NCBI GenBank assembly: GCA_964616855.1
Contig: CAZTUJ010000001.1
Coordinates: 524,784 to 588,783, forward strand
Direction: 5' to 3'
Source: an uncultured Gammaproteobacteria bacterium
Lineage (GTDB): Bacteria > Patescibacteriota > Patescibacteriia > Patescibacteriales > UBA12465
DNA length: 64,000 nucleotides
The position numbers and the translations under genes were made by a program. This document shows, piece by piece, positions 3,067 through 51,283 of the stretch. Each line of letters starts with the position of its first letter. Position 1 is the stretch's first letter. The notes beneath the pieces are model-generated. The model was not told the DNA's origin, did no database searches, and saw only the letters and a list, made by a program, of their open reading frames with translations.

Positions 3067-3441
3067 TCAACAGGCGCTCGCCCGCGGCTTACCAATATTA
3101 GGTTCGCTGGCATAATGAGGCTTCACCGCCTGACCGCCAGGAAAAGCAAAAACTTCACCATCAGTCAGGGCTCTAGCGGGAATACCTAAAGCATAAGCTA
3201 AGGCATTAGCAGTTAAAACGCCAACCCGCAAAGAAGTAAAACTGGCCCCCTGATTTTGAACACGGATTTCTTTAATGTCTTCCCAGATTATCCCTTTAGC
3301 CGCCATCATCTTCACTAATAAAGGCAAAAGCTTTTCTGTTTGGAGCCTTGGCGCTTTTATTTTCTTTATTATCTTCTTGTCGCCCCCGATTAAAGAAATT
3401 TGAATATAGTCATTTAAAGTTGTATCAATTGTTAAAACCAT
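3067..3441 (-). CDS. tsaB: TsaB (YeaZ)-like protein, N-terminal half only
   Basis: 124 aa. LTIDTT...IRVQNQGASFTSLRVGVLTANALAYALGIP matches the TsaB N-terminal ASKHA half. The C-terminal half found in ~230-aa TsaB is absent, and a terminator follows directly. Overlaps dus by 17 nt. Confidence 0.65.
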   Translation of the reverse strand: MVLTIDTTLNDYIQISLIGGDKKIIKKIKAPRLQTEKLLPLLVKMMAAKGIIWEDIKEIRVQNQGASFTSLRVGVLTANALAYALGIPARALTDGEVFAFPGGQAVKPHYASEPNIGKPRASAC

Positions 3442-4399
3442 AGTCTTTTAAAATATCTTCTAATTGTTTAAGAGTAGAAACTTGTACCAAGCGACTCCGC
3501 AAATTGCTGGCACCCGCTAAACCCTGAACATACCAGCAAGACTGTTTGCGCCATTCCACTAGAGCCGACTCGCCCTTCAAAGAGACTAAAAGAGAGGCGT
3601 GGCGATAAAGTAAAGCACAAATCTCGGCTTGCCCATAAATAATTTCTCTGTCCTCTCTAATTTCTTGAAATAGCCAAGGTCGGGCCAGCGCCCCCCTGGC
3701 CAGGCCTAAACCATCAGCTCCGCTTAAAGTTAGCGCTCGTTTAGCGGCAGCTAAATCGTTAATACCGCCATTCATTAAAATAACCCCTTTAAAATAAGGT
3801 CGCACTTTTTCGGCTAAGCTAAAATCCGCTTCCCCGGTAAATCCCTGATTTAAACTGCGACCATGAATCATGATAGCGGCAATTGGTAAATCGGCAATAT
3901 TTTTTACAAAATCAATTGCTTCCACTTCTCCGGACTTAGCCCTAATCTTTACTGCTAAAGGTAAGGAGGAATTAGATAAAACTTCTTCAATCACTGCCCG
4001 GGCACCATTGAGGTTTTTCATTAAATCCGCCCCAGCCCCTTGCTTAATCACTTTACTAACCGGACAGCCGAAGTTGATATCTAGACCCTGGGGTTTAATG
4101 GTTTTTTCTATAATTTTAGCAGCCACCCCAAAATGTTCGGGCTTAGAACCAAATAACTGAACAACGAAATTAGCCTCTTTCTTCTCATCCCACTGTAAGA
4201 GACGCAAAGTGTCATTATCAGCGTCGCCTTGATGATAATAAAGGGCGGTAGCTGAGGCCATTTCACTATAAACAACATCCGCTCCGTAAGCGGAGCAGAT
4301 TTGACGAAAGGCAATATCGGTAAAACCAGCCATCGGCGCTAAAGCCATTATCGGCCGCCCCGAACTCTTTAATTTTTCCCAAAAATTTTTAGACATCAA
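3425..4399 (-). CDS. dus: tRNA-dihydrouridine synthase
   Basis: 324 aa. LAPMAGFTDIAFRQIC..., DINFGCP and IMIHGR are Dus family TIM-barrel motifs. Confidence 0.9.
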   Translation of the reverse strand: MMSKNFWEKLKSSGRPIMALAPMAGFTDIAFRQICSAYGADVVYSEMASATALYYHQGDADNDTLRLLQWDEKKEANFVVQLFGSKPEHFGVAAKIIEKTIKPQGLDINFGCPVSKVIKQGAGADLMKNLNGARAVIEEVLSNSSLPLAVKIRAKSGEVEAIDFVKNIADLPIAAIMIHGRSLNQGFTGEADFSLAEKVRPYFKGVILMNGGINDLAAAKRALTLSGADGLGLARGALARPWLFQEIREDREIIYGQAEICALLYRHASLLVSLKGESALVEWRKQSCWYVQGLAGASNLRSRLVQVSTLKQLEDILKDYGFNN

Positions 4400-19752: not shown

Positions 19753-20178
19753 TTATAAATATTTAAGAGCGGAGCGCGGAAATACACGTGCCTTATGTAG
19801 ATTTGCCCGACTCACCCATTCGGCTTGATGACCGTGGCGAGAATCAAGAATAGGAAAAAAATCGCGCTTATAGGCTTTAGCGGAGCGGAAAGAAGCTTCA
19901 TAAAGAAAGATGATTTCATGCGCCGGTAAACCGTTAAAAACAAAAATATTTTCTTCCACACTCAACAGATTTTTAACGGAAATTTCCAAACCCAACTCTT
20001 CTTTAATTTCCCGACGCAGGGCCTGGCGACTATCTTCACCAAATTCTATGCCCCCGCCCAATAAGCGATAATGATGACGCTTCCTAATCTTATCAAAACC
20101 AGGGCAAACTAAAAATTTGTCCTGATACTTAATCAAGGCTAAAGCGAGTACACGAAGATTTTTATGATCAATCGGCAT
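19753..20178 (-). CDS. NUDIX hydrolase
   Basis: 141 aa. Nudix box GGGIEFGEDSRQALRREIKEELG. Confidence 0.85.
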   Translation of the reverse strand: MPIDHKNLRVLALALIKYQDKFLVCPGFDKIRKRHHYRLLGGGIEFGEDSRQALRREIKEELGLEISVKNLLSVEENIFVFNGLPAHEIIFLYEASFRSAKAYKRDFFPILDSRHGHQAEWVSRANLHKARVFPRSALKYL

Positions 20179-21025
20179 AAGTAATAATTTCTTGTAAAAT
20201 TTCTAAAGGCAAACTAAAATCACCATCATTTAAAACCAAAGCATCATACAAAGAGCGATAGGCCGGTAAAGACTCCTGAATCTTATCATTCAAAAAACCA
20301 ATTTTTAATAAAGCTTGGTAAGAAAAACCTTCAGCCATACCGGCATCACCCAAAGAATCGCCCAAAAGTAAAACATTATTTCTATTCTTTACTCTCTCAA
20401 AACAACCAAAATCAACTAACATTGTCTCGTCTTTATTACCAGAATGAATAATAGGCGTCCTGACCGCTATCGCTTTACCGCTCTTGTCCCAAACAAAATC
20501 ATTAGCGATTAGGGAAATATTATCCGACCATAAATTCTCCTTTTCTAAAAAATATCTCAAGGCCGACTCACCTAAACCACTCGCCGAAAATATTACCAGA
20601 GGCACTTGGTGTTCAGCTAAAAGCCCAATGAACTCTGCCGCTCCGGGACGCAAATTAGCTAAACGGCTATCAATTACTTGATTAATATGGTTCCTATCCA
20701 AACCAGAATCAATCAATAATTGAAATTGCTTCTGCCACCATTCCGCCATCAAAGACTTACGGGCAGAGTTAGAAAGAGTCTGATCGTTTTCAAAAGGGCT
20801 ATAATAATCAAAAAGAGCCTGGGAACGTCGCTGATAATCAAGACCTAAAAAATTACTAGCCCGCAGAGCCCCTAAAAGAGACAAAGATTTCCGGCCTTGA
20901 TAAAAATTGGTGGTCAGGGTACGGTCAAAATCAGCAATTACTTGCAGTTTGGATAAAGTTCCCCGGACTAAGCGTTGCCGCTGCCGGTCAAAATTTTCCC
21001 GCCGAGTAATCATCAAATCTTCCAT
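20168..21025 (-). CDS. Pyrimidine 5'-nucleotidase, UMPH-1/NT5C3-like HAD hydrolase
   Basis: 285 aa. DFDRTLT motif I, VPLVIFSASGLG and LLLGDSLGDAGMAEG align in order with the cytosolic 5'-nucleotidase III family. Overlaps the NUDIX gene start by 11 nt. Confidence 0.7.
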   Translation of the reverse strand: MEDLMITRRENFDRQRQRLVRGTLSKLQVIADFDRTLTTNFYQGRKSLSLLGALRASNFLGLDYQRRSQALFDYYSPFENDQTLSNSARKSLMAEWWQKQFQLLIDSGLDRNHINQVIDSRLANLRPGAAEFIGLLAEHQVPLVIFSASGLGESALRYFLEKENLWSDNISLIANDFVWDKSGKAIAVRTPIIHSGNKDETMLVDFGCFERVKNRNNVLLLGDSLGDAGMAEGFSYQALLKIGFLNDKIQESLPAYRSLYDALVLNDGDFSLPLEILQEIITYAD

Positions 21026-23280: not shown

Positions 23281-24795
23281 CTAGGAATTATTAAAAGACA
23301 AAAGTGCCTCCATGATTTGACGGTCATTAGCCAAGCGGGGAATTTTTGCCTGCCCGCCTAGGCGTCGGCGCTCTTTCAGCCAATCGTAGAAAAGACCAGG
23401 GCGCGCCTTAATTAAAACAGGGGCAGACAAATTCAAATCTTTATGTCGCTTAGCCTCATAATCAGAGTTACGGGCTTTCAGTTCTTCATCTAAAATCCGA
23501 CCGAATTCCAACCAATCCTGAGGCTCCTGCTCAAATTCAAAGAGCCATTGATGGCAAGCAGCGGCGGTGCCAGAATTATATAAAGGCGCTGCTGAATATT
23601 CTTTGACCAAGGCCTGGCAGCGCTGACAGGTAACAGCCAGAGCCTGATCAGCATTTTCTACCACCAATTCTTCCCCGCAGGCATTGATAAAACTTTTTGT
23701 CCGGCCAGTAACCACAATCCGAAAAGGTGATAAAGAGGTAAATTTAACCGTATCCCCAATTAAATAACGCCAAAGACCGGCATTAGTAGAAATTACTAAA
23801 GCATAGTTCTTACCCAATTCTACTTGTTCTAAAGTTAAGGCCCGGGGTTTAGGGGAGTCCAATTCTTCCAAGGGCACAAATTCATAAAAGACGCCGCCAT
23901 TTAAAAATAAAAGCATATCCGCACGAGACAGATCATCTTGAAAAGCAAAAAAACCCTCAGAAGCATTATAGACTTCCAGGTAGTGCATATTCGGCCCAGG
24001 AATCAAGGCTTCAAATTGAGCACGATAGGGGCAAAAACTGGTGCCGCCATGAACAAAAACTTCTAAATTCGGCCACACCTCTCGCAGATTATTCTTTCCG
24101 GTCATTTCTAAAATCTTCTTGGCTAAAATTAAATTCCAAGAAGGCACCCCCGACAAACTAACAATATTTTGATAAGCGATAATCTCGGCAATGCGCGCTA
24201 ATTTTGCCTCCCACTCAGACATTGAAGCTACGCTGAAACGAGGACTACGGCGTAATTGTGCCCACCAAGGCAAGTTCTTCATCAAGATAACGGAGACATC
24301 AGCAATATATTTATCTGCCCCAATTTCCGCATCCTGACGACTGCCGCCCAGAGCAAAGTTTTGTCCCAAAAGTAAATTGGAGTTAAGATTTTGGGCAAAA
24401 TACATCGCGAATAAACTCCGCCCACCCCGATAATGACAATCTTTTAAAGCACAGCTACTTACCGGAATATACTTACTCTTACTACTAGTGGTGCCGGATG
24501 ATTTGGAAAAATATTTAATTTTACCCGGCCAAAGTAAGTTTTTTTCGCCACGTAACAATTTTTCAATATAGGGTTGTATATCTTCATAACGACTAATCGG
24601 AACTACTTCTTGATACTGGGCAACATTCTTAATTTGCTGATAGTTATAATTTTTTCCCCAAGTCGTCCTTCTTCCCTGCTTTAAAAGATAACGAAAAACC
24701 TTAGCCTGAACCAAAAAAGGGCGCTCCATAAAATTACGCACCGCGTGCCGACGACGAGAGAAAGCCAAATTGGAAAGAGAAAACTTTTTCAACAT
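23281..24795 (-). CDS. GH3 family (auxin-responsive-promoter-like) adenylate-forming enzyme
   Basis: 504 aa. FSKSSGTTSSKSKYIP (acyl-adenylate P-loop-like) and the overall layout match bacterial GH3 proteins. Confidence 0.75.
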   Translation of the reverse strand: MLKKFSLSNLAFSRRRHAVRNFMERPFLVQAKVFRYLLKQGRRTTWGKNYNYQQIKNVAQYQEVVPISRYEDIQPYIEKLLRGEKNLLWPGKIKYFSKSSGTTSSKSKYIPVSSCALKDCHYRGGRSLFAMYFAQNLNSNLLLGQNFALGGSRQDAEIGADKYIADVSVILMKNLPWWAQLRRSPRFSVASMSEWEAKLARIAEIIAYQNIVSLSGVPSWNLILAKKILEMTGKNNLREVWPNLEVFVHGGTSFCPYRAQFEALIPGPNMHYLEVYNASEGFFAFQDDLSRADMLLFLNGGVFYEFVPLEELDSPKPRALTLEQVELGKNYALVISTNAGLWRYLIGDTVKFTSLSPFRIVVTGRTKSFINACGEELVVENADQALAVTCQRCQALVKEYSAAPLYNSGTAAACHQWLFEFEQEPQDWLEFGRILDEELKARNSDYEAKRHKDLNLSAPVLIKARPGLFYDWLKERRRLGGQAKIPRLANDRQIMEALLSFNNS

Positions 24796-41135: not shown

Positions 41136-42347
41136 TTAATGCTGAAACGATTTTCTGATCTCACTTAAAGTCGAGAAGAAATAATCAATTTCTGCTTCTG
41201 TATTATAAAAAGCTAAACTGGCACGCAGACTAGCACTGATACCCAAAGAATCATGGAGCGGCTGAGCACAATGATGGCCAGCGCGGGTGACAATCCCCTG
41301 CTCACCGAGCAAGTCAGCGGCATCATGGGGGTGCAAACCATCAATCACTAAAGAAAATAAAGGTAAACGATTTTCCCTCCCGCCCAAAAGCCGCAGCCAA
41401 GGATAAGAAGCTAACTTCTCTAAAAAATAATTACTCAATTCCTGCTCACATTTAAAAATTTCTGCCCGGCCGATAGTTTGCAAGTAGCGACAGGCTGTTC
41501 CCAGAGCAATCGCGCCTTCGATATTAGGGGTGCCGGCTTCAAATTTAGTCGGACCAGTCTCCACCGAAAAAGAATCAGCTTTAACTTCAGTAATCATACC
41601 GCCACCGCCTAAAAAAGGCGGCATAGATAAAAGCACTTCGCTCCGAATATAAAGGACACCGACACCACTAGGAGCAAATAATTTATGGCCGGAAAAAACT
41701 AAAAAATCACAGTCAAGCTGACGAACATTAATCTCGTGATGAACAACACTTTGAGCAGCGTCAACTAAAGTCAGGACGCCCCGCGCTTTCGCGGACGCTA
41801 AAATATTTTTAAGTTCATAAAACTGCCCCAAGACATTGGAGACTTGGGTAATTGCCAACAAGCGCAAGCGCGGACAAGCCAGGACAGCCGCTAAGCTATC
41901 CGCATCAAAAGTGCCATCCTCTTGCAATTCAATATACTGTAACTTAATTTGGCGCTTCGCTTGCAGTTGCAGCCAAGGCACAATATTAGCGTGATGTTCC
42001 GCTCGCGTTAAGGCAATGACATCACCGGCCTGCAAATTTTCTTCTCCCCAAGACCGTGCCACCAAATTAATCCCAGCAGTTGTTCCAGACGTGAAAATAA
42101 TTTCCTCAGTATCAGCGCCAATAAAGTCAGCCACGCGCCGGCGCGCTTCCTCGTAGAGTAAAGTTGCTTCTTCGGCTAAAAAATTAGGACCACGGTGAAT
42201 ATTGGCATTATGGTGCAAATAATAATCATTAAGGGCGTCTAAAACGACCTGCGGTTTCAAAGCGGTGGCAGCATTATCAAAATAGACCAAGTCTTTATCT
42301 TGATAACGGCGAGCGAGCATGGGAAAGTCAGCACGATAGTTTTTCAT
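41136..42347 (-). CDS. sufS: Cysteine desulfurase SufS (class V aminotransferase)
   Basis: 403 aa. PLP-Lys context (FSGHKLFAPSGVG) and catalytic loop (RAGHHCAQPL). Confidence 0.95.
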   Translation of the reverse strand: MKNYRADFPMLARRYQDKDLVYFDNAATALKPQVVLDALNDYYLHHNANIHRGPNFLAEEATLLYEEARRRVADFIGADTEEIIFTSGTTAGINLVARSWGEENLQAGDVIALTRAEHHANIVPWLQLQAKRQIKLQYIELQEDGTFDADSLAAVLACPRLRLLAITQVSNVLGQFYELKNILASAKARGVLTLVDAAQSVVHHEINVRQLDCDFLVFSGHKLFAPSGVGVLYIRSEVLLSMPPFLGGGGMITEVKADSFSVETGPTKFEAGTPNIEGAIALGTACRYLQTIGRAEIFKCEQELSNYFLEKLASYPWLRLLGGRENRLPLFSLVIDGLHPHDAADLLGEQGIVTRAGHHCAQPLHDSLGISASLRASLAFYNTEAEIDYFFSTLSEIRKSFQH

Positions 42348-43108
42348 AAACGGGCAGAAATTAAAGATAAAATTTCGGCAGACAACTCATTATCACCCAA
42401 GCCTTTGACAAAATTACGGCTAAGCGATAAGGCAAATAATTTTTGCGCCGCTTCTGGACTCAAACCCCGGCTGCGCAGATAAAATAAATCTTCTTTGGAT
42501 AATTGAAAAGTGCTGGCACTATGACCAGCCCGGACATCATTAGCGGCAATATTTAAACCGGGAATCAATTGACCACGGGCGGCCTTACTGGCTAAACGCA
42601 AGCGCATATCCACCCGAGTATCACTCTGCTGAGCAGTCGCTAACACATTAAGATCAGCGTCATAGCGTAGACGTGAGTCACCATCAAGCCAAGCATCCAC
42701 CTGCACCCGGCCGAAACTTCCTCGCCCGGCAAAATCATAACTTGCTTTTACCTCCAGACTGTCCTGCTCCCAACCCAAAAACAAAGAATGACTTTCAATC
42801 TTCGCCCGGTCAGCTAAGTAGTATTGAAGTTGCCAAGTACCGCTCTTGGCTTCTAAAAATAAATAATAGGTCTGTAGAACCGCCCCCGCCTCTAAGTGCC
42901 AAGAGCGGCGAATCTTTTCTAAAGACACTCCCTGCTCCACTAAGAGGAGATAGCGAGCGTGAGCGTTTTCCGCCAGTGTAAAATTTCGCTCGGGTAGACA
43001 GGCGTCTTTACCCAGCCTTTCCAATAAAAAAGTATCGTCACCAGCCTCCAGTTTAATTGTTGTTTCTGTTTGTAAATTGATTAAGCTTTGCATAAAATTA
43101 ACCGACAC
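42344..43108 (-). CDS. sufD: Fe-S assembly protein SufD (short form)
   Basis: 254 aa. C-terminal SufBD beta-helix signature (DVRAGHSASTFQLSKEDLFYLRSRGL). Lies between sufB and sufS. Confidence 0.85.
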   Translation of the reverse strand: MSVNFMQSLINLQTETTIKLEAGDDTFLLERLGKDACLPERNFTLAENAHARYLLLVEQGVSLEKIRRSWHLEAGAVLQTYYLFLEAKSGTWQLQYYLADRAKIESHSLFLGWEQDSLEVKASYDFAGRGSFGRVQVDAWLDGDSRLRYDADLNVLATAQQSDTRVDMRLRLASKAARGQLIPGLNIAANDVRAGHSASTFQLSKEDLFYLRSRGLSPEAAQKLFALSLSRNFVKGLGDNELSAEILSLISARL

Positions 43109-44492
43109 TATTTTCCATTTCTAATTCCACCATCCGATTCATTTCCACCGAATATTCCAAGGGCAACTCTTTGGTAATTGGTTCAATAAAGCCGTTAACC
43201 ACCATGGCCGCCGCTTCCGCTTCTTTCAAGCCGCGACTGCGCAGATAGAAAAGATCTTCGGCATTAATTTTGCCGGCACTAGCTTCATGAGCAATCGTGG
43301 CGCTGGCATTATTAATCTTCATCACCGGAATCGTATCGGAAATTGAGAATTCATCGAGCAATAGAGCGTCACATTTAACGGAGACGGCCGCGTCTTCGGC
43401 GCCTGGACCGACTTCCACCAAACCGCGATAAACGGACTTCCCTCCGTTTTTGCTAATACTCTTCATGACAATATTAGAAGTGGTGCGTGGCGCGACATGG
43501 ATAACCTTGGCTCCAGTATCTTGAATCTGTCCTTGATTAGCAAAGGCCACACCGAGGTGATCGGCGCTCGCCCCTTCTCCGACCAAAATCGAACAAGGAT
43601 AGAGCATCGTGGTATTACTACCAAAATTACCCCCCACCCATTCCATGTGGGCTTTCTTTTCGACAATCGCTCTTTTCGTATTGAGATTATAGGCATCTTT
43701 ACTCCAGCTTTCAACACTACTGTAGCGGAAACGAGCCCCTTCTTTAACATAAATTTCGACACCGCCGGCGTGAAGAGAATCAACGCCGTAGCGCGGAGCA
43801 CTACAACCTTCAATATAATGAGCTTGGGCGCCGCTCTCCACAATAATTAAGGTATGTTCAAACTGACCCATACCTTTAGCATTCATGCGGAAATAGGCTT
43901 GTAAGGGTTCTTTGATTTTTACCCCTGCCGGAATATATAAAAAAGTACCGCCGCTCCAAACCGCTCCATGTAAAGCCGCAAACTTATGTAAAGACACGGG
44001 CATGGCTTTCATAAAATAAGGCTGCACCAGCTCTGGATATTTCTTCACCGCGACATCTAAATCTTCAAAAATTACGCCTTGTCTTTTAAATTCTGCCTTG
44101 AGGCTATGATAAACCACGGTCGACTCATATTGGGCTCCGACCCCGGCTAGTACCTCCTGCTCGGCTTTAGGAATACCCAACTTATCAAAAGTATTTTTAA
44201 TATCGATAGGCACATCATCCCAAGATTGCGCTTGTCCCTCCATCGCCTTAGCGTAATAGGTAATCTTATCAAGATCCAAACGGGAAAGATCTGGACCCCA
44301 AGTCGGTAAAGGCATTTCTTTAAAAATCGCCAAAGCCGCCAAACGACGCGTGAGCATCCATTCCGGTTCTTCTTTCTCTAAAGAAATTCGCCGCACTAAA
44401 GCTTCATCCACCCCGCTTTTAGCGCTGCGCATGTACTCCGAGGGATTATATTCATCCCAAAGGGAGTCGTTTGTTTTTAAATCTTCCGCCAT
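43098..44492 (-). CDS. sufB: Fe-S assembly protein SufB
   Basis: 464 aa. Conserved SufB sequence throughout (e.g. GGNFGSNTTMLYPCSIL, ATIAHEASAGKINAEDLFYLRSRGL). Confidence 0.95.
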   Translation of the reverse strand: MAEDLKTNDSLWDEYNPSEYMRSAKSGVDEALVRRISLEKEEPEWMLTRRLAALAIFKEMPLPTWGPDLSRLDLDKITYYAKAMEGQAQSWDDVPIDIKNTFDKLGIPKAEQEVLAGVGAQYESTVVYHSLKAEFKRQGVIFEDLDVAVKKYPELVQPYFMKAMPVSLHKFAALHGAVWSGGTFLYIPAGVKIKEPLQAYFRMNAKGMGQFEHTLIIVESGAQAHYIEGCSAPRYGVDSLHAGGVEIYVKEGARFRYSSVESWSKDAYNLNTKRAIVEKKAHMEWVGGNFGSNTTMLYPCSILVGEGASADHLGVAFANQGQIQDTGAKVIHVAPRTTSNIVMKSISKNGGKSVYRGLVEVGPGAEDAAVSVKCDALLLDEFSISDTIPVMKINNASATIAHEASAGKINAEDLFYLRSRGLKEAEAAAMVVNGFIEPITKELPLEYSVEMNRMVELEMENSVG

Positions 44493-44502
44493 AATTAATA
44501 AT

Positions 44503-45246
44503 TTATTCCAGTCCTAAGAAACCTTCTTTCTCTAATTGCGCCGCTAATTCGGCCCCGCCGCTTTTAACAATCCGTCCGCCTGACATCACTAATACTTGAT
44601 CAGGTTTAATGTATTTTAAAACGCGCTGATAATGCGTCACCGCTAAAATACTAGTCTTCTCCGTTTTAAAACGGCTAAGAGCCTGACCGGCTACTTCTAA
44701 AGCATCAACGTCCAAGCCAGAATCAATTTCATCTAGAATGGCTAAGCGCGGAGATGCTAAAGCTAATTGCAAAAGCTCCGCCTTCTTCTTTTCCCCTCCG
44801 GAAAAATCTTGATTAAGGTGGCGAGAAGACCAATCCCCCTGGACTGATAAAGCCGCTAACTCCGTATCCAATTTTTCCTTAAAGGCAAATACGCTTTCAG
44901 CTTCTTCCCCCCGAGCAAGGTGCAAGGATTTATAGGCATCAAAAAGGAAAGGAAATAATTCCAAGCCCGCAATTTCCCGCGGCTCTTGAAAAGCTAAAAA
45001 TAAACCGGCAGCCGCTTTTTCTTCTGGCTTGGCCGCGGTAATATCTTGACCACGGAAAGTAATCTTACCACTCAGGATCTGATAGTCGGGATGCCCCATC
45101 AGGACATTAGCCAAAGTGCTTTTACCAGAACCATTGGGTCCCATGACAACTACACTCTCACCTTCGGCCACACTAAAGCTGACCTCATGCAAGATTTCTT
45201 TGTCACCGGCCGCTACGGTCAAATTTTCTACTACTAACATTTTCAT
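44503..45246 (-). CDS. sufC: Fe-S assembly ATPase SufC
   Basis: 247 aa. Walker A (GPNGSGKST), FSGGEKKK signature and ILDEIDSGLD. Confidence 0.95.
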   Translation of the reverse strand: MKMLVVENLTVAAGDKEILHEVSFSVAEGESVVVMGPNGSGKSTLANVLMGHPDYQILSGKITFRGQDITAAKPEEKAAAGLFLAFQEPREIAGLELFPFLFDAYKSLHLARGEEAESVFAFKEKLDTELAALSVQGDWSSRHLNQDFSGGEKKKAELLQLALASPRLAILDEIDSGLDVDALEVAGQALSRFKTEKTSILAVTHYQRVLKYIKPDQVLVMSGGRIVKSGGAELAAQLEKEGFLGLE

Positions 45247-45650
45247 ATTTTTTTAGCTAAGAGCGAAGCCAAACTACGTTTGGCCAAGCTTTGTTTGATA
45301 TCGCCCAGCAACAAGGGCCAAGCACTTTTCAAGCCACATTCCTTAAAATGCGGACAAGTCTTGGCTTCACCGTGGGCACAACGGACCTTAATTTCGCCCG
45401 ACAAGGCTTCTAAGATTTCTAAAACTTTTATTTTCTCAGCGGGGCGAGCTAGATAATAGCCGCCACCTGACCCCTCTCGACTCTTAACCAAACCAGCCGC
45501 TGATAGGGATTTAGCAATCTGACTGAGATAAGGAGAAGACACCCCCAAGCTCTTGGCCAGCGGGGATAAAGGCACAACCTGGCCGGAAAAATTAGCTAAT
45601 TGCAGCATGATTAAGAGACCGTAGTCGGTTTTGGCACTAATTTGAAACAT
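45243..45650 (-). CDS. Rrf2-family transcriptional regulator (IscR/SufR-like, with Cys ligands)
   Basis: 135 aa. Winged HTH (SPYLSQIAKSLSAAGLVKSREGSGGGY) and a C-x6-C-x5-C cluster (RCAHGEAKTCPHFKEC). First gene of the suf operon. Confidence 0.9.
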   Translation of the reverse strand: MFQISAKTDYGLLIMLQLANFSGQVVPLSPLAKSLGVSSPYLSQIAKSLSAAGLVKSREGSGGGYYLARPAEKIKVLEILEALSGEIKVRCAHGEAKTCPHFKECGLKSAWPLLLGDIKQSLAKRSLASLLAKKI

Positions 45651-46080: not shown

Positions 46081-47259
46081 TTAATATTGAAACTCCCCAA
46101 AAGGAGTGCGCAGGATTACCTCATTTTGAGGTTGGAGAGAGTCAACGCATTCACCCAAAACTGGAGCCTGGAGCTGACAGAATTTAGCGGTCTCTTCAAC
46201 GGCGGCCAGAAATACTTTATCCGGTTCACCAATGATATCGATACCGATACCGCCATTAAATGATCGGTACATGTTGCGCCAAAGCTCTTTGCTTTCTGTT
46301 TTAATTAAGCGGAAAATGGGCGGAGGCGGAGGCATGTGTTTGCGATAAGTAATACCACCAGTACCAACGCGGCGGATTTTAGTGGCGCCGCCGCCAGTGT
46401 TCATGCTAATACCATGCAGAAATTGCAAAGCACCAGCTTCTTTGAGTAAGTCAATCAATTTCTTGATGACGAAGGCCCACTGACGTGTAGGCGAGGTTAA
46501 AGCCTCTCCCACCGACATCCCGGATAATTCCTGGAGGTAGTCATTACTCAAATAGCGACCGCGATAGGCATTACGCCCTCTAAGCTGCGGGTATTTCTGA
46601 TTGTAGTCCGTCCGCATTAAGACGGTGCGGCCCATGGTCAGGCCGTTGGACATAATACCAGAGTTAAGTTGGTCCTCCCACGACGCTTGGCCATCACTTT
46701 GGAAGCCAAAGATAATGTCGCCCGCCCGTACATTGCCAGTGATTAACTCAGATTTCTGATTCCAGGCAGTGACGGCAACGTTGAAAACGCCGCTGAGCAC
46801 CTGATCAGGAAGATCGGCGGTCTCGCCGCCGAGAAATTTAATCTGGAAGCCATGGTCTTCATAAAGGGACAAAACTTCCTGAAATCTTCTAGCGACAGCG
46901 GACATAACTACTTTCTTTAAATCTCCCGGTAGGCTTAAATCAAGCACATCGGAAATAATCCAGGGCCCAGAAACGAAACCACTGGCAGCGATATCACCGG
47001 CATTCATACCGATTCCATCATCAACCATGCCGCCAAAAATATTGGCATTGCCGGTTTCATAATAATGCAAAAGCCGCTGGATGAATTTACTGCCATCACC
47101 GTCCTGATGTTGAGTGAGGGCACGGGTAGGGTCAAAGGGGTCCGTGACAATGTTCACGAAAGCCCCAGGGTACTCATTGTTGATAATTTTTTCAAAAGCT
47201 TCTCTGACAGAATCTTTGTCGGGGTCAACGCCCATGTTTTCATACTGGCTATTATTCAT
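46081..47259 (-). CDS. PurM-like protein (AIR synthase-related family), divergent
   Basis: NMGVDPDKDSVREAF, QDGDGSKF, GGETADLP and MYRSFNGGIGIDI are collinear with PurM motifs. Start set at MNNSQYENMG (47259), because the track's upstream extension contains the preceding gene's terminator. Confidence 0.7.
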   Translation of the reverse strand: MNNSQYENMGVDPDKDSVREAFEKIINNEYPGAFVNIVTDPFDPTRALTQHQDGDGSKFIQRLLHYYETGNANIFGGMVDDGIGMNAGDIAASGFVSGPWIISDVLDLSLPGDLKKVVMSAVARRFQEVLSLYEDHGFQIKFLGGETADLPDQVLSGVFNVAVTAWNQKSELITGNVRAGDIIFGFQSDGQASWEDQLNSGIMSNGLTMGRTVLMRTDYNQKYPQLRGRNAYRGRYLSNDYLQELSGMSVGEALTSPTRQWAFVIKKLIDLLKEAGALQFLHGISMNTGGGATKIRRVGTGGITYRKHMPPPPPIFRLIKTESKELWRNMYRSFNGGIGIDIIGEPDKVFLAAVEETAKFCQLQAPVLGECVDSLQPQNEVILRTPFGEFQY

Positions 47260-47361
47260 GCTGATAGGGATTAGGGTGAGTATTAAGATGATTTTTTTAA
47301 GAACGATTAATAGGTTGACATTAATATAAAAATGAAAAATAGTCAAATGGAAAGAGTCCAC

Positions 47362-47388
47362 AAAAAACAGGCCATCAGCCTGTTTTTT
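47362..47388 (-). terminator. Terminator of the DMT-riboflavin kinase gene
   Basis: AAAAAACAGGC-5 nt loop-GCCUGUUUUUU, 19 nt after the stop at 47407. Confidence 0.7.
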
Positions 47389-47406
47389 AGATAAAACCAT
47401 TATATA

Positions 47407-48705
47407 TTATTTGAGCCCTAGCCTTTCCAAAGCTCGCCAATCATCAGCAATGGCCGCCAACAACTCATCCTTACCGGCAAATTTCTGCACTTCCCTAATT
47501 TTCTCTACCACCGTCACAGTCAAAGTCTGACCATAGATATCTTGAGAAAAATCTTTAATCAAAACCTCCAGCGACACCGCGGCGGCAAAAATATCCTTAA
47601 AGCCAAAGTGCATTAAGCCCTGATAATTCTTTCCCTCCCAGGAAACCATCACGGCATAAATGCCATGAGGAATATCCAAGTCATTCTTATCAAGATTAGC
47701 CGTGGGCAAACCAATACTCCGACCCTTGCCTTGGCCGGCAATCACCTTAGCAGAAAAAATAATTTTCTTGGGACGGCTTAAAGCCGAAACTTTAAAGAAG
47801 ACAAACAATAAAACCAGAAAGGCTAAACTCTGAGCCCAATTCAAATAGCTATCATTAAAAATATAGTCGAGAATCAAAGCCGAGAAAGGCCAAAACAATT
47901 CTAAGATGGTGGCCGCCGAAGCACTTAAACGGCGCAGGCCGAAATAATAGATAAACATCGCCCCCGCGCCGCTAGTCAAAACAATGATAACCAGCAACTG
48001 CCACTGCCCGCTACTAATTGTCTGGGTTAAACCAGCCGTCCCGCTGATTACTATCAAGATTAAAGCTAAAACGGAGGTGAGACCGAAACGCAGAGCCGCC
48101 ACCGCCTTGTAGTCCAAATGATTAGCGATGCGCTTGCCAAAAACCGTGGAAGAGCCAAAAGCAAAAGCGGCAATGAAAGCAAACAAAGCGGCGTTATGGC
48201 GCCAGTCAATAGCCATGACATTTAAACCATTTTGCCCAAAAGCTAAAACGTAGCTAGCAATAATTGCTAAAGCCGCCCAAAGATAGAAAGTCCGGGGTAA
48301 TTTTTCTTTCAGTACCAAACGAGCCAAGAGCAAGGCAAAGACCGGCTGCAATTTTTGCAAAATCACCACCGTCGCAAAACTAACTTCCCCGTCCATGGCC
48401 GCAAAGAAAGCTTTAGTAATATAGATGGTGCCAATTAAACCACCAAACAAACTAATCCAAAAAACCGCCGCCCAGCTTTTTCGACTCAGCGTCTTAATTT
48501 TTGCCCGGTAAATATAGAGAAAGGGGCTCAAGACAATGAAGCCGAGAAAATGCTCCCAAAAAACCACCAAGCTGGCGGGCAGGATATAGAATTGCGGCCG
48601 CCAAAACATACCGTCCAAACTCCAAAGGAGGGCGGCCAGCATAATGGCTAAGGCACCGGCTAATTGTCCGGGCTTTAATATTTTTTTCATTCCGATAATT
48701 GACAT
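47407..48705 (-). CDS. Fusion protein: EamA/DMT 10-TM permease plus a C-terminal riboflavin kinase domain
   Basis: 432 aa. Residues ~1-315 form two EamA repeats with about 10 TM helices. Residues ~318-432 (KVIAGQGKGRSIGLPTANLD...GIYAVMV...LEVLIKDFSQDIYGQTLTVTVVEKIREVQKF...ELLAAIADD) match the RibF C-terminal kinase domain. An alternative start at MKKILKPG (48690) is possible. Confidence 0.75.
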   Translation of the reverse strand: MSIIGMKKILKPGQLAGALAIMLAALLWSLDGMFWRPQFYILPASLVVFWEHFLGFIVLSPFLYIYRAKIKTLSRKSWAAVFWISLFGGLIGTIYITKAFFAAMDGEVSFATVVILQKLQPVFALLLARLVLKEKLPRTFYLWAALAIIASYVLAFGQNGLNVMAIDWRHNAALFAFIAAFAFGSSTVFGKRIANHLDYKAVAALRFGLTSVLALILIVISGTAGLTQTISSGQWQLLVIIVLTSGAGAMFIYYFGLRRLSASAATILELFWPFSALILDYIFNDSYLNWAQSLAFLVLLFVFFKVSALSRPKKIIFSAKVIAGQGKGRSIGLPTANLDKNDLDIPHGIYAVMVSWEGKNYQGLMHFGFKDIFAAAVSLEVLIKDFSQDIYGQTLTVTVVEKIREVQKFAGKDELLAAIADDWRALERLGLK

Positions 48706-48809
48706 AATGGCCGATAAAAAGATAGAACATCGGTCCTATCTTTTTATTTTAGCTCCAAATCTAAAAATAGAGGAGCCTGAACTAATATTTGCTACTGAGG
48801 ACCCTGGCC

Positions 48810-49532
48810 TTAAGCTTTCTTCTTCTTGGCCGGGGCTTTCTTGACTTTAACTTCTTTGACTTTAGCTTCTTTCTTCACAACCTTAACTGCCTTTTCTTTT
48901 TTCGGAGCAATTACCGCTGCTACTTCCTTAACTACCTTTTCAACAGCTGCGACTACTGGTTTCTTTTCTGCTTTTTCCTCCCGAACATTGCCGCCCTTCA
49001 AAAGGTTCATAATCTGATCAAGCTTGGCGTGGATAGCGGTAAGTTCGTCCTGATGACCATCATGGGACTTCTGGGGCTTACGGCCCTGATCAGCGCCATG
49101 AAAACATTCGGAACAGAAAATTGGCTTACCAGCGGTCGGACGGAAAGGAACTTCGCAGTCATTGCCGCACTCCTGACAAACAGCGTGGAACATTTCTTTT
49201 TCAGCGCGGTCAAAGTCACGGCTGCCACGATCGAAATCGCGACCACCACGATCACGTCCGCCGAAAGCAGGACGGTCGTTACCGCCTTTTTGCACAGAGA
49301 AACAGGAACTGCAAAGAACCGGTTTCGTACCATTCGGACGAAAAGGAACTTCACAATCGTTGCCGCAATCACTGCAGATTGCTTTATGCATAGTTGGGCG
49401 CTCTGAATCGCGACCACCGCGGCCGCCGAAGCCACCACGATCACCGAAACCGCCCCGGGAGGAACCCCCGAAACCACCGCGCGAAGAACCACCGAAACCG
49501 CCCGGTTTTCTCGGACTCTTAAAATCTTTCAT
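48810..49532 (-). CDS. CxxC-x17-CxxC zinc-ribbon protein with an RGG-rich N-terminus and a Lys-rich C-terminus
   Basis: 240 aa. Two copies of C-x2-CGNDCEVPFRP-x6-8-C-x2-CF, N-terminal GGFGGSSRGGFG repeats and a C-terminal KKEAKVKEVKVKKAPAKKKKA tail. Confidence 0.8.
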   Translation of the reverse strand: MKDFKSPRKPGGFGGSSRGGFGGSSRGGFGDRGGFGGRGGRDSERPTMHKAICSDCGNDCEVPFRPNGTKPVLCSSCFSVQKGGNDRPAFGGRDRGGRDFDRGSRDFDRAEKEMFHAVCQECGNDCEVPFRPTAGKPIFCSECFHGADQGRKPQKSHDGHQDELTAIHAKLDQIMNLLKGGNVREEKAEKKPVVAAVEKVVKEVAAVIAPKKEKAVKVVKKEAKVKEVKVKKAPAKKKKA

Positions 49533-49665
49533 AATGTAATGATAAATTTATTAATTATATTAGCTAAACAAGAGACAAGCGGCGAGGCCATGTCTCCAGG
49601 TAGCGTTATCGTACCACAGAAATGCAATTATGGGAAATGGCAAGGGTAAGTCCGGCTTAACTTGG

Positions 49666-49968
49666 CTAAAAACTAAAACTGAGTGTTCCTGCCTCCTGAC
49701 TGAAAAATAGGTAGAGACAATAAAGGAGAGCAAGGTTCTCAATAATCAAAAGGGGGATGCCAAGGAGAAAATACCAAGTGCGGGTTTTATGTCGGCAGGC
49801 AAACATACCGGCGTAGACGCCGACTGCCCCCAAAGCCGTGGCCAGGAAAAAAAGCAGCCCCTCAGAAAGGCGTTCCTGACTGCCCCGAACCGCTTTCGCT
49901 TTATCAACTAACATTAAAACGAAAGCAAAGACGTTGAAGATAATAAAAGCGGCCAAATAATAGTTCAT
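49666..49968 (-). CDS. DUF1294 family small membrane protein
   Basis: 100 aa, 3 TM. MLVDKAKA-x-RG-x-RLSE...GA-x-G-x-YAGMFACRHKTR pattern. Confidence 0.7.
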   Translation of the reverse strand: MNYYLAAFIIFNVFAFVLMLVDKAKAVRGSQERLSEGLLFFLATALGAVGVYAGMFACRHKTRTWYFLLGIPLLIIENLALLYCLYLFFSQEAGTLSFSF

Positions 49969-49984
49969 AAAAATAATCTAAAAA

Positions 49985-51283
49985 CTAATAAGCTAAACGA
50001 TTCTGACCTTTTAAAGCCCGAGGAGTGATATTGACCCGCGCCTCTTCGGACAAAAGAATTAATTCCCGATCAAAAGCAAAAACCTGAGGGTCTAACTTAT
50101 AGGCCATCTCATTAATACCTAATAAATATAAACCAGCCAGACTACTTAAACGAGAAAGAGCGACATAGCCCATGCCGTAGCCAAAGGAACGGCTTAAATC
50201 AATCTCCGCCGCCTCCAAAGTCATGCCCTGACTCTTGTGAACACTAATTGCCCAGGCTAAACGTAAAGGAAGCTGATTGATGCGGGCTAAAATTTTGTCA
50301 TCATCGTCAATAGTCCAACTATCAGGACCAACCACAATCTCTTCGCCACTACGCAAGCGCACGATGGGAAAATTATATTCATCAAAAGCCACTACCACGC
50401 CAGTAGTGCCATTAACATAAACCGCTTTCTCCTCCTTAAATTTATTTTTCACAAACATCACTAAAGCTCCTTTCTTTAACACTAAATCCGAGGGGGCGAG
50501 ACAACTCTTCTGCAAAGTCGCCACCAATTTTTTATCGCCACTATTAGTCATGTGATAGACATGAGCTTCAGCTTCAATTAAATCTAGCTCTTGATTGTTA
50601 ATGCGATCAACATCAACGTTATGGGTAAACAGACGTACCGGGCTAATTCCCTTTGGCCTTTCTTTAATCCGATTCTGCAAAAGAGCGATTGTCTCCGCGC
50701 CAACCTCATCGCGACGCAGACTCCCTAAAATCCTCGTCATCTTCTCGTCGTTTTGCCGATGCTGTTCTTCTAAATAGCAAACGCGGATATCCATCTCCGG
50801 CCAGACTTGGGCTTTGTACACAAACTCCGCCTCTTCATTGCCAGGAGAAATTGGCGGCAACTGAAAAAAGTCGCCGGACAGTACCACCTGCAAACCGCCA
50901 AAGGGCAGAAAATTCTTTTTCAAAACCTGGCAGACCTGATTAACCATATCCAAGCGGTGAGCATGGAGCATGGAAATTTCGTCGATAATTAAAACCTCAG
51001 TTTTTTCAAATTGTTTTTTGAGATAAGCTTTCTTGGCTAAGGATTGCAGGTCCCGCTGACTCAAACTATCTTTAATGCCAATCCCGGCCCAAGAATGAAT
51101 GGTGCGACCACCAATATGAGTAGCGGCGATGCCAGTGGAGGCGGTAATAGCGACGCCAATTCCCTTCTTCTTGAGATAAGCACTATATTGATTCAATAAA
51201 AAAGTCTTGCCACTACCGGCCGGACCGGTTAACAGCACATTATGACCTGCCTCTAAAATTCTCAATGCTTCCTTCTGTTTCAT
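49985..51283 (-). CDS. PIF1/RecD-like SF1 DNA helicase
   Basis: 432 aa. Walker A (GPAGSGKTF), IIDEISM and a C-terminal SVHKSQGMT motif. Confidence 0.85.
   Translation of the reverse strand: MKQKEALRILEAGHNVLLTGPAGSGKTFLLNQYSAYLKKKGIGVAITASTGIAATHIGGRTIHSWAGIGIKDSLSQRDLQSLAKKAYLKKQFEKTEVLIIDEISMLHAHRLDMVNQVCQVLKKNFLPFGGLQVVLSGDFFQLPPISPGNEEAEFVYKAQVWPEMDIRVCYLEEQHRQNDEKMTRILGSLRRDEVGAETIALLQNRIKERPKGISPVRLFTHNVDVDRINNQELDLIEAEAHVYHMTNSGDKKLVATLQKSCLAPSDLVLKKGALVMFVKNKFKEEKAVYVNGTTGVVVAFDEYNFPIVRLRSGEEIVVGPDSWTIDDDDKILARINQLPLRLAWAISVHKSQGMTLEAAEIDLSRSFGYGMGYVALSRLSSLAGLYLLGINEMAYKLDPQVFAFDRELILLSEEARVNITPRALKGQNRLAY

Follow-up and report, generated by a model that had tools for sequence, protein, structure and literature searches.

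Can a single polypeptide both bring riboflavin into a cell and trap it there as flavin mononucleotide (FMN)? The question is raised by one gene in a 64,000-nucleotide stretch of contig CAZTUJ010000001.1 (hereafter the window), in which an EamA-type permease of the drug/metabolite transporter (DMT) kind and a riboflavin kinase domain share one open reading frame (ORF). For their vitamins, bacteria of the Candidate Phyla Radiation (CPR) and DPANN archaea are believed to rely on partners, and the ways in which they take up and keep flavins are ill-defined. An earlier annotation of this DNA, made from the letters and their translations (the sequence-only reading), had proposed that the fusion couples riboflavin import to phosphorylation. 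Following up that proposal computationally, we consider it about three-in-four probable, as judged from sequence, that the protein is a one-polypeptide riboflavin salvage module of the import-and-trap kind.

A single intact gene encodes a ten-helix permease joined to a kinase

The sequence-only reading had described a 432-residue protein in which a ten-transmembrane EamA part is joined to a C-terminal kinase, and the coordinates of this ORF proved exact (Table 1). Its expectation of two EamA repeats and a flavokinase domain was borne out by Pfam, since both models are passed: EamA (PF00892) matches in two stretches (E = 1.8e-25) and Flavokinase (PF01687) matches residues 314-427 (E = 1.3e-27, 96.9 bits compared with a cut-off of 19.6). 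The kinase motifs that it had listed are present as GQGKGRSIGLPTANL, GIYAV, SLEVLIKDF..DIYG and KIREVQKF. It had also flagged nucleotides ~47740-47780 as a possible frameshift or assembly join. This segment corresponds to residues ~310-320 and is a genuine linker; the junction segment aligned to residues 305-318 is 13-14 amino acids long in 76/76 homologues. An artefact is ruled out by the occurrence of the identical protein (P0001) in a 626-kb NCBI contig and in an independently assembled Logan contig, and by an architecture that is kept in hundreds of sequences.

A model of the whole chain was built with AlphaFold2 on 76 homologues (mean predicted local distance difference test score, 83.4; predicted template modelling score, pTM, 0.81). 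The model consists of ten long helices (12-39 through 290-309), a five-residue connector, β-barrel strands at residues 315-404 that match the six-stranded riboflavin kinase fold, and a C-terminal helix; hydropathy also gives ten transmembrane helices in the permease half. In Foldseek searches the membrane part matched YddG (5i20) and LicB (7paf) with target-normalised TM-scores of 0.74-0.79, as well as TPT and SLC35, and the C-terminal part matched 1q9s (target-normalised TM-score 0.71), 5a8a (0.66) and the kinase modules of 1mrz and 3op1. Lysine and arginine residues in the loops between the modelled helices number 19 on the cytoplasmic side versus 2 on the opposite side, a bias that puts the N- and the C-terminus, and with the latter the kinase, in the cytoplasm. 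On this model the topology is N-in/C-in, with the kinase on the cytoplasmic side of the membrane.

Table 1. Positions of the fusion gene, its parts and flanking hairpins in the window, and of archaeal-kinase counterparts in their own loci
Feature	Position	Strand	Basis
Complete fusion gene, 432 codons plus TAA stop (47407-47409)	47407..48705	-	ORF list
ImpX-family DMT transporter module, residues 12-309, ten transmembrane helices	47779..48672	-	AlphaFold2, Foldseek, ImpX identity
Short linker SRPKK, residues 310-314, from transmembrane helix 10 to first kinase strand	47764..47778	-	AlphaFold2 secondary structure
Riboflavin kinase (flavokinase) domain, residues 315-428, predicted cytoplasmic	47422..47763	-	PF01687, PDB sequence matches, fold match
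PTAN nucleotide/Mg-binding motif, residues 334-337	47695..47706	-	Conservation, alignment to known enzymes
Glu380 codon, predicted catalytic base	47566..47568	-	Invariance, alignment to solved kinases
Terminator-like hairpin and U-tract directly after the stop codon	47357..47391	-	RNA fold
Strong 15-bp hairpin and U-tract, ending 8 nt before the start codon	48714..48747	-	RNA fold
rbkR/ribK with ImpX-family DMT gene	L093 4339-5942; L094 1834-3377; L095 3346-4945		
ImpX-family permease-PF01982 fusions	L086 8001-9287; L088 8001-9263		

The C-terminal domain retains the catalytic residues of riboflavin kinases

The only kinase family matched by the window protein is PF01687, and the archaeal CTP-dependent kinase family PF01982 gave no match to it. 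NCBIfam models of RibF match only in their C-terminal kinase half (profile positions ~172-290) and far below the full-length cut-offs, and Pfam gave no match to an FMN adenylyltransferase (FMNAT) domain (FAD_syn, PF06574) in the protein. Since the RibF models cover the kinase half only, the FMNAT half is absent, and by these matches the window protein is not a bifunctional RibF. Its C-terminal domain has the same flavokinase fold and family as RibF, with PTAN and the catalytic Glu kept, but a membrane permease has replaced the FMNAT module, so that the protein would be able to make FMN and not flavin adenine dinucleotide (FAD).

Sequence matches of the kinase segment to solved structures include 1mrz (E = 7e-13), 3op1 and 1q9s/1nb0, and the segment aligns with the FAD synthetases of T. 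maritima and S. pneumoniae as well as with the human and S. pombe riboflavin kinases. PTAN and the catalytic Glu (LEV/MET motif) are in register with the solved riboflavin kinases, and the PTAN motif lines up with that of the enzymes from human, T. maritima and E. coli. In riboflavin kinases, catalysis depends on Thr and Asn of this motif together with the conserved Glu; we take this Glu to be the catalytic base that corresponds to E268 of C. ammoniagenes, and the E268D mutant structure (3zug) is among the fold matches of the window model. Across 76 close homologues G324, G328, G332, T335, E380 and R404 are invariant, and N337 is kept in at least 90%. When the most divergent fusions were aligned together with E. 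coli RibF, T335, E380 and R404 were found in 18/18 sequences and N337 in 16/18. These alignments indicate that the kinase half carries the conserved catalytic residues of riboflavin kinases, and it would be expected to use ATP.

The permease half is related to the riboflavin importer ImpX

The sequence-only reading had named RibN as the DMT-family riboflavin importer, a separate protein. Of the characterised transporters it is ImpX, and not RibN, that comes closest to the window permease. The impX locus of F. nucleatum was recovered from a metagenome contig by means of the primers printed in PMC4418817. Both primers match without a mismatch, and between them lie an FMN riboswitch and an ORF of 299 aa. 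Compared with this ImpX, the window protein shows 38% identity over 281 of the 299 residues (E = 6e-62), and two relatives described below, an archaeal fusion (P0144) and a Cloacimonadota homologue (L068), are 46% and 40% identical to ImpX, respectively. ImpX restores growth of an E. coli ΔribB riboflavin auxotroph at low riboflavin, and a cut-off of >38% identity has been used for ImpX orthology (PMC4418817).

Like ImpX, the permease half is a ten-helix protein with two EamA repeats, and the two share the motifs LW..DG, QKLQP(I/V)FA, F(S/A)FGS(S/A)TVFGKR and YYFGLR; in addition, close unfused relatives of the window permease keep the FMN riboswitch that is typical of impX. By sequence, the permease half is clearly homologous to ImpX and most likely an ImpX-family protein, an assignment that goes beyond generic EamA. 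Unlike ImpX, which is a stand-alone protein of ~300 aa under an FMN riboswitch, the window protein has a C-terminal kinase, lacks the riboswitch and is encoded in a CPR genome. A 2015 survey recorded ImpX solely among riboflavin-prototrophic Proteobacteria, Firmicutes and Fusobacteria (PMC4418817). RibN of alpha- and gamma-Proteobacteria, compared here by description only, resembles the window permease in being a DMT-type riboflavin importer, and is encoded by a separate gene (PMC4418817).

A further relative of the permease (P0190; 38% identity; 574 aa, from a single Logan contig) has a HAD-type hydrolase as its fusion partner. Since riboflavin biosynthesis and FMN hydrolysis both involve HAD phosphatases, P0190 may be another flavin-related fusion. 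As for RibN, we know of no report of its fusion to a kinase.

Distribution and evolution of the fusion

Both Pfam domains are present in every one of the best 120 homologous clusters (120/120; 60-100% identity), whose database names are "EamA family transporter", "DMT-like permease" and "riboflavin kinase" only and whose sources are labelled Patescibacteria (CPR), Falkowbacteria and Parcubacteria. In all, the architecture is shared by more than 120 clusters. When one genome per GTDB species was scanned, 550 relatives came to light, and a survey of the best 80 loci with hidden Markov models (HMMs) showed both domains in one ORF at ~60 of them. Four loci (L050, L054, L072 and L077) are fused but interrupted under translation table 11; L054, from an SR1 bacterium, has an uninterrupted fusion once it is read with code 25. 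An all-against-all search of representatives gave ~15 fused clusters at the 50% level, down to 33% identity, and the 76-sequence family alignment has a mean column identity of 68%. The closest named relatives of the window protein are Falkowbacteria (77% identity, L007). The survey of relatives proposed in the sequence-only reading thus found the fusion conserved over many independent assemblies and species. That reading had also held that orthologues always split into two genes would count against it: the fusion is widespread, but some orthologues are unfused, hence the fusion is lineage-specific.

In neighbour-joining bootstrap trees of the permease domain, the bacterial-kinase fusions were monophyletic in 0/200 replicates, and two pairs of fused and unfused sisters were well supported (199/200 and 178/200 bootstraps). 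A first tree placed the window clade as sister of Cloacimonadota with a support of 12/200, and we do not claim this relationship. The two kinase families found fused to this permease (see below) mark separate fusion events.

One Falkowbacteria metagenome-assembled genome (MAG) carries two fusion paralogues in tandem (L049, 3974-6569), the second of which scores lower against the family HMMs. Many fusion loci bear the label 'uncultured Gammaproteobacteria' (third-party-annotation MAGs), and four loci with the bacterial-type fusion (L028, L032, L039 and L061) are labelled Nanoarchaeota, Woesearchaeota, Methanosarcinales or archaeon. Such archaeal and gammaproteobacterial labels may reflect either mis-binned or mis-labelled CPR contigs or transfer into DPANN archaea.

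Unfused relatives, rib operons and archaeal counterparts

Unfused homologues were found at 17 of the best 80 loci; they are 51-61% identical to the window protein over residues ~17-306, are free of a kinase domain within 4 kb and come from Neomarinimicrobiota, Cloacimonadota, Fidelibacterota and one Patescibacteria MAG. At 4/4 Cloacimonadota loci Rfam detected an FMN riboswitch on the strand of the gene. At L068 it lies directly upstream of a stand-alone 306-aa homologue, which is 56% identical to the window permease half (E = 4e-110), and at L070, L075 and L083 it heads a ribD-ribE-ribBA-ribH operon of which the homologue is the last gene. In the SR1 bacterium (L054, 2845-5347) ribE and ribH come after the fusion gene, on its strand, and the 8-kb locus has neither ribD nor ribBA, which may represent a partial pathway or precursor salvage.

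At 3/3 DPANN loci inspected, from Aenigmatarchaeota, Woesearchaeota and Micrarchaeota, an unfused homologue abuts or overlaps an upstream gene for a PF01982 kinase (rbkR/ribK). Two of these three kinase genes also encode a MarR-type winged helix-turn-helix domain, a combination that is the architecture of RbkR (PMC5397151). Moreover, rare archaeal fusions, four clusters in all (P0144 and P0285-P0287), join a homologous permease to a C-terminal PF01982 domain. The permease of P0144 is 38% identical to that of the window over 325 aa (E = 8e-67); the kinase of the archaeal-type fusion matches PF01982 (E = 3e-29) and the ribK_Meth model (E = 2e-24), and one contig with a PF01982 fusion also bears an archaeal RNase P subunit gene. 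RbkR/RibK are thus partners of the same permease clade, in operons as in fusions, but belong to a different, CTP-using family (PMC5397151), whereas the window domain is of the bacterial ATP type. The permease-PF01982 fusion is convergent with the CPR fusion. The archaeal riboflavin transporters listed so far are RibU and the MFS-type RibT only, without the DMT clade (PMC5397151), and from its position the ImpX-family gene next to rbkR is likely to encode a missing archaeal riboflavin transporter.

Riboflavin specificity, a guess in the sequence-only reading, is now made more plausible by the identity to ImpX, by the FMN riboswitches and rib operons of the relatives, by the rbkR operons and by the fusion to an archaeal kinase.

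Regulation and genomic neighbourhood of the fusion gene

Rfam detected no FMN riboswitch in the whole window at the gathering score and none in the 3.2 kb around the gene (47000-50200) at E ≤ 10, in agreement with the sequence-only reading, which had seen none upstream. Weak MicC matches (E about 2-4) overlap the terminator-like hairpin region, lie far below the gathering score and were rejected. Bracketed by two stable hairpins with U-tracts, the fusion gene looks like a stand-alone unit. The downstream hairpin has a folding energy of -18.7 kcal/mol (z = -4.05) and 0/200 shuffled sequences were as stable; the 110-nt upstream intergenic region folds with a dG of -33.8 (z = -3.73). The upstream hairpin is probably the terminator of the preceding gene. 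Lying 8 nt from the ATG, it leaves no space for a Shine-Dalgarno sequence or a promoter (48706-48809), and read-through, leaderless translation or an internal start at Met6 are candidate routes to expression of the fusion gene.

The neighbourhood of the fusion gene is kept in close relatives only. The preceding gene (48810-49532, minus strand) encodes a duplicated treble-clef zinc finger (zf_Tbcl_2) with a Gly/Arg-rich N-terminus and a Lys-rich tail, and also adjoins the fusion gene in a 73%-identical relative (L002). Downstream, an ORF at 46081-47400 (minus strand) encodes a divergent PurM/AIR-synthetase-like protein that matches PDB 3mdo (E = 8.5e-44) and, below cut-off, TIGR00878 (E = 7e-20), with no Pfam match at E ≤ 0.001. 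Because its first 47 codons, an N-terminal extension, contain the terminator-like hairpin of the fusion gene, translation of this ORF probably begins at the ATG at 47259. About 430 nt further downstream lies an Fe-S assembly operon (41136-45650, minus strand) with an Rrf2-family regulator followed by sufC, sufB, sufD and sufS. More distant genes, also on the minus strand, encode a GH3-family (acyl-acid amido synthetase-like) protein (23281-24795) and a UMPH-1-type pyrimidine 5'-nucleotidase (20168-21025); both families are mainly associated with eukaryotes.

With respect to flavin metabolism, no rib genes were found in the window or near 60+ other fused loci. The host is presumed to be unable to make riboflavin. 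No FAD_syn domain was detected among the ~40 annotated ORFs of the window, and no FAD synthetase gene lies near the fusion gene. As the sequence covered represents ~10% of the genome, these negatives are weak. At 3425-4399 (minus strand) the window encodes a Dus-family tRNA-dihydrouridine synthase. Dus enzymes are FMN-dependent, and this one would be a client for the FMN that the fusion would make.

DISCUSSION

We propose that the window gene encodes a riboflavin salvage module in which the ten-helix ImpX-family permease would let riboflavin cross the membrane and the kinase, tethered at the cytoplasmic end of the tenth helix by a linker of ~5 residues, would convert incoming riboflavin into FMN with ATP-Mg. 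Charged FMN is not an expected exit substrate, so that uptake would be effectively one-way and an inward gradient would be maintained, a form of metabolic trapping that would be functionally close to group translocation. Riboflavin kinases show product inhibition, and such inhibition of the tethered kinase could replace the lost riboswitch as feedback. Inward transport of riboflavin by the window protein and the kinetic or physical coupling of the two steps are what we infer from homology and architecture. By analogy, permease-mediated uptake driven by cytoplasmic phosphorylation would resemble that of PnuC/NadR, for nicotinamide riboside, and of RibM/PnuX with RibF, which are facilitator-plus-kinase trapping systems. 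These consist of separate proteins and belong to other transporter families, whereas the permease and the kinase of the window form one chain.

Several observations weigh against this proposal. The 38% identity to ImpX falls right on the orthology threshold of PMC4418817, and the inward direction is deduced solely from ImpX and from riboswitch logic. The latter has its own gaps: Rfam found no FMN riboswitch at 18 diverse fused loci, as in the window, and none upstream of the unfused homologues of Neomarinimicrobiota, Fidelibacterota, Melioribacteraceae and Caldithrix, nor upstream of the unfused homologue in one 4.7-Mb genome, so that the riboswitch link rests on one phylum and Fusobacterium. 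Substrate shifts are common within DMT clades, and many EamA/DMT proteins are exporters. Next to the SR1 fusion, ribE and ribH fit precursor salvage equally with riboflavin import. Finally, a phmmer search of the window and 88 loci (~780 kb) with the N-terminal half of E. coli RibF, a weak test made with a single-sequence probe over ~10% of the genome, found no FMNAT.

A stronger form of the proposal is possible but rather doubtful: the kinase might dock over the cytoplasmic vestibule of the permease and phosphorylate riboflavin before its release, which would make the protein an ATP-coupled, and its archaeal counterpart a CTP-coupled, vitamin group translocator. If true, this would be phosphorylation-driven uptake unrelated to the sugar phosphotransferase system, and group translocation would have at least two separate origins, one among CPR bacteria and one among archaea, with product inhibition replacing riboswitch control.

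Alternatively, though we regard this as improbable, the two activities are co-located without being coupled. The sole riboflavin kinase of the cell would then be anchored to the permease as a Rosetta-stone fusion, by which a tiny genome ensures that the two are expressed 1:1, and riboflavin would be freed to the cytoplasm and phosphorylated as by a soluble enzyme. In other lineages unfused ImpX homologues are indeed paired with separate kinases, and the interleaving of fused and unfused forms in the tree, with its two well-supported sister pairs, suggests that the fusion is easily gained or lost. However, the short linker of constant length and the whole-chain pTM suggest a fixed docking geometry in the model, and the convergent fusion of an archaeal kinase of another family argues that proximity has been selected.

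It is very unlikely that the permease instead carries another flavin-related compound, such as 6,7-dimethyl-8-ribityllumazine, 5-amino-6-ribitylaminouracil, a flavin analogue or FMN/FAD, with the kinase acting after a further step. Consistent with such a substrate, the SR1 fusion is followed only by ribE and ribH, the last two biosynthetic steps, a Cloacimonadota homologue ends a complete rib operon in a prototroph, and the P0190 relative is fused to a HAD-type hydrolase and not to a kinase. On the other hand, the prototype ImpX has been validated for riboflavin uptake (PMC4418817), this permease occurs fused to riboflavin kinases of two unrelated families, both of which act on riboflavin itself, and rib genes are absent from the window and from the vicinity of the 60+ other fused loci.

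That the kinase-like domain is a flavin or nucleotide sensor gating a DMT exporter or other transporter is hardly credible: exporters are frequent among EamA/DMT proteins, the nearest PDB fold is that of the exporter YddG and cytoplasmic ligand-binding domains commonly regulate transporters, but residues that serve catalysis alone (the PTAN Thr and Asn, Glu380 and Arg404) are kept down to 33% identity, FMN-riboswitch repression in relatives follows the logic of an importer, and ImpX is an importer (PMC4418817).

Both parts of the salvage module proposed here are of known kinds, and the fused proteins are already public under generic names. In the searchable literature, outside of which most subscription journals lie, we found no description of the fusion, of its ImpX identity, of the archaeal counterpart or of the rbkR-impX operons. 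The separation of the kinase from FMN adenylyltransferase raises the question of where these organisms obtain FAD. Import and trapping by one chain would assign a specific function, on the strength of sequence comparison, to a protein that is generically annotated in hundreds of genomes, and the homology found here extends the ImpX family to CPR bacteria, DPANN archaea and several other uncultured bacterial phyla. The fusion would also offer a compact natural model for learning whether a kinase can drive a secondary-type permease to which it is covalently joined.

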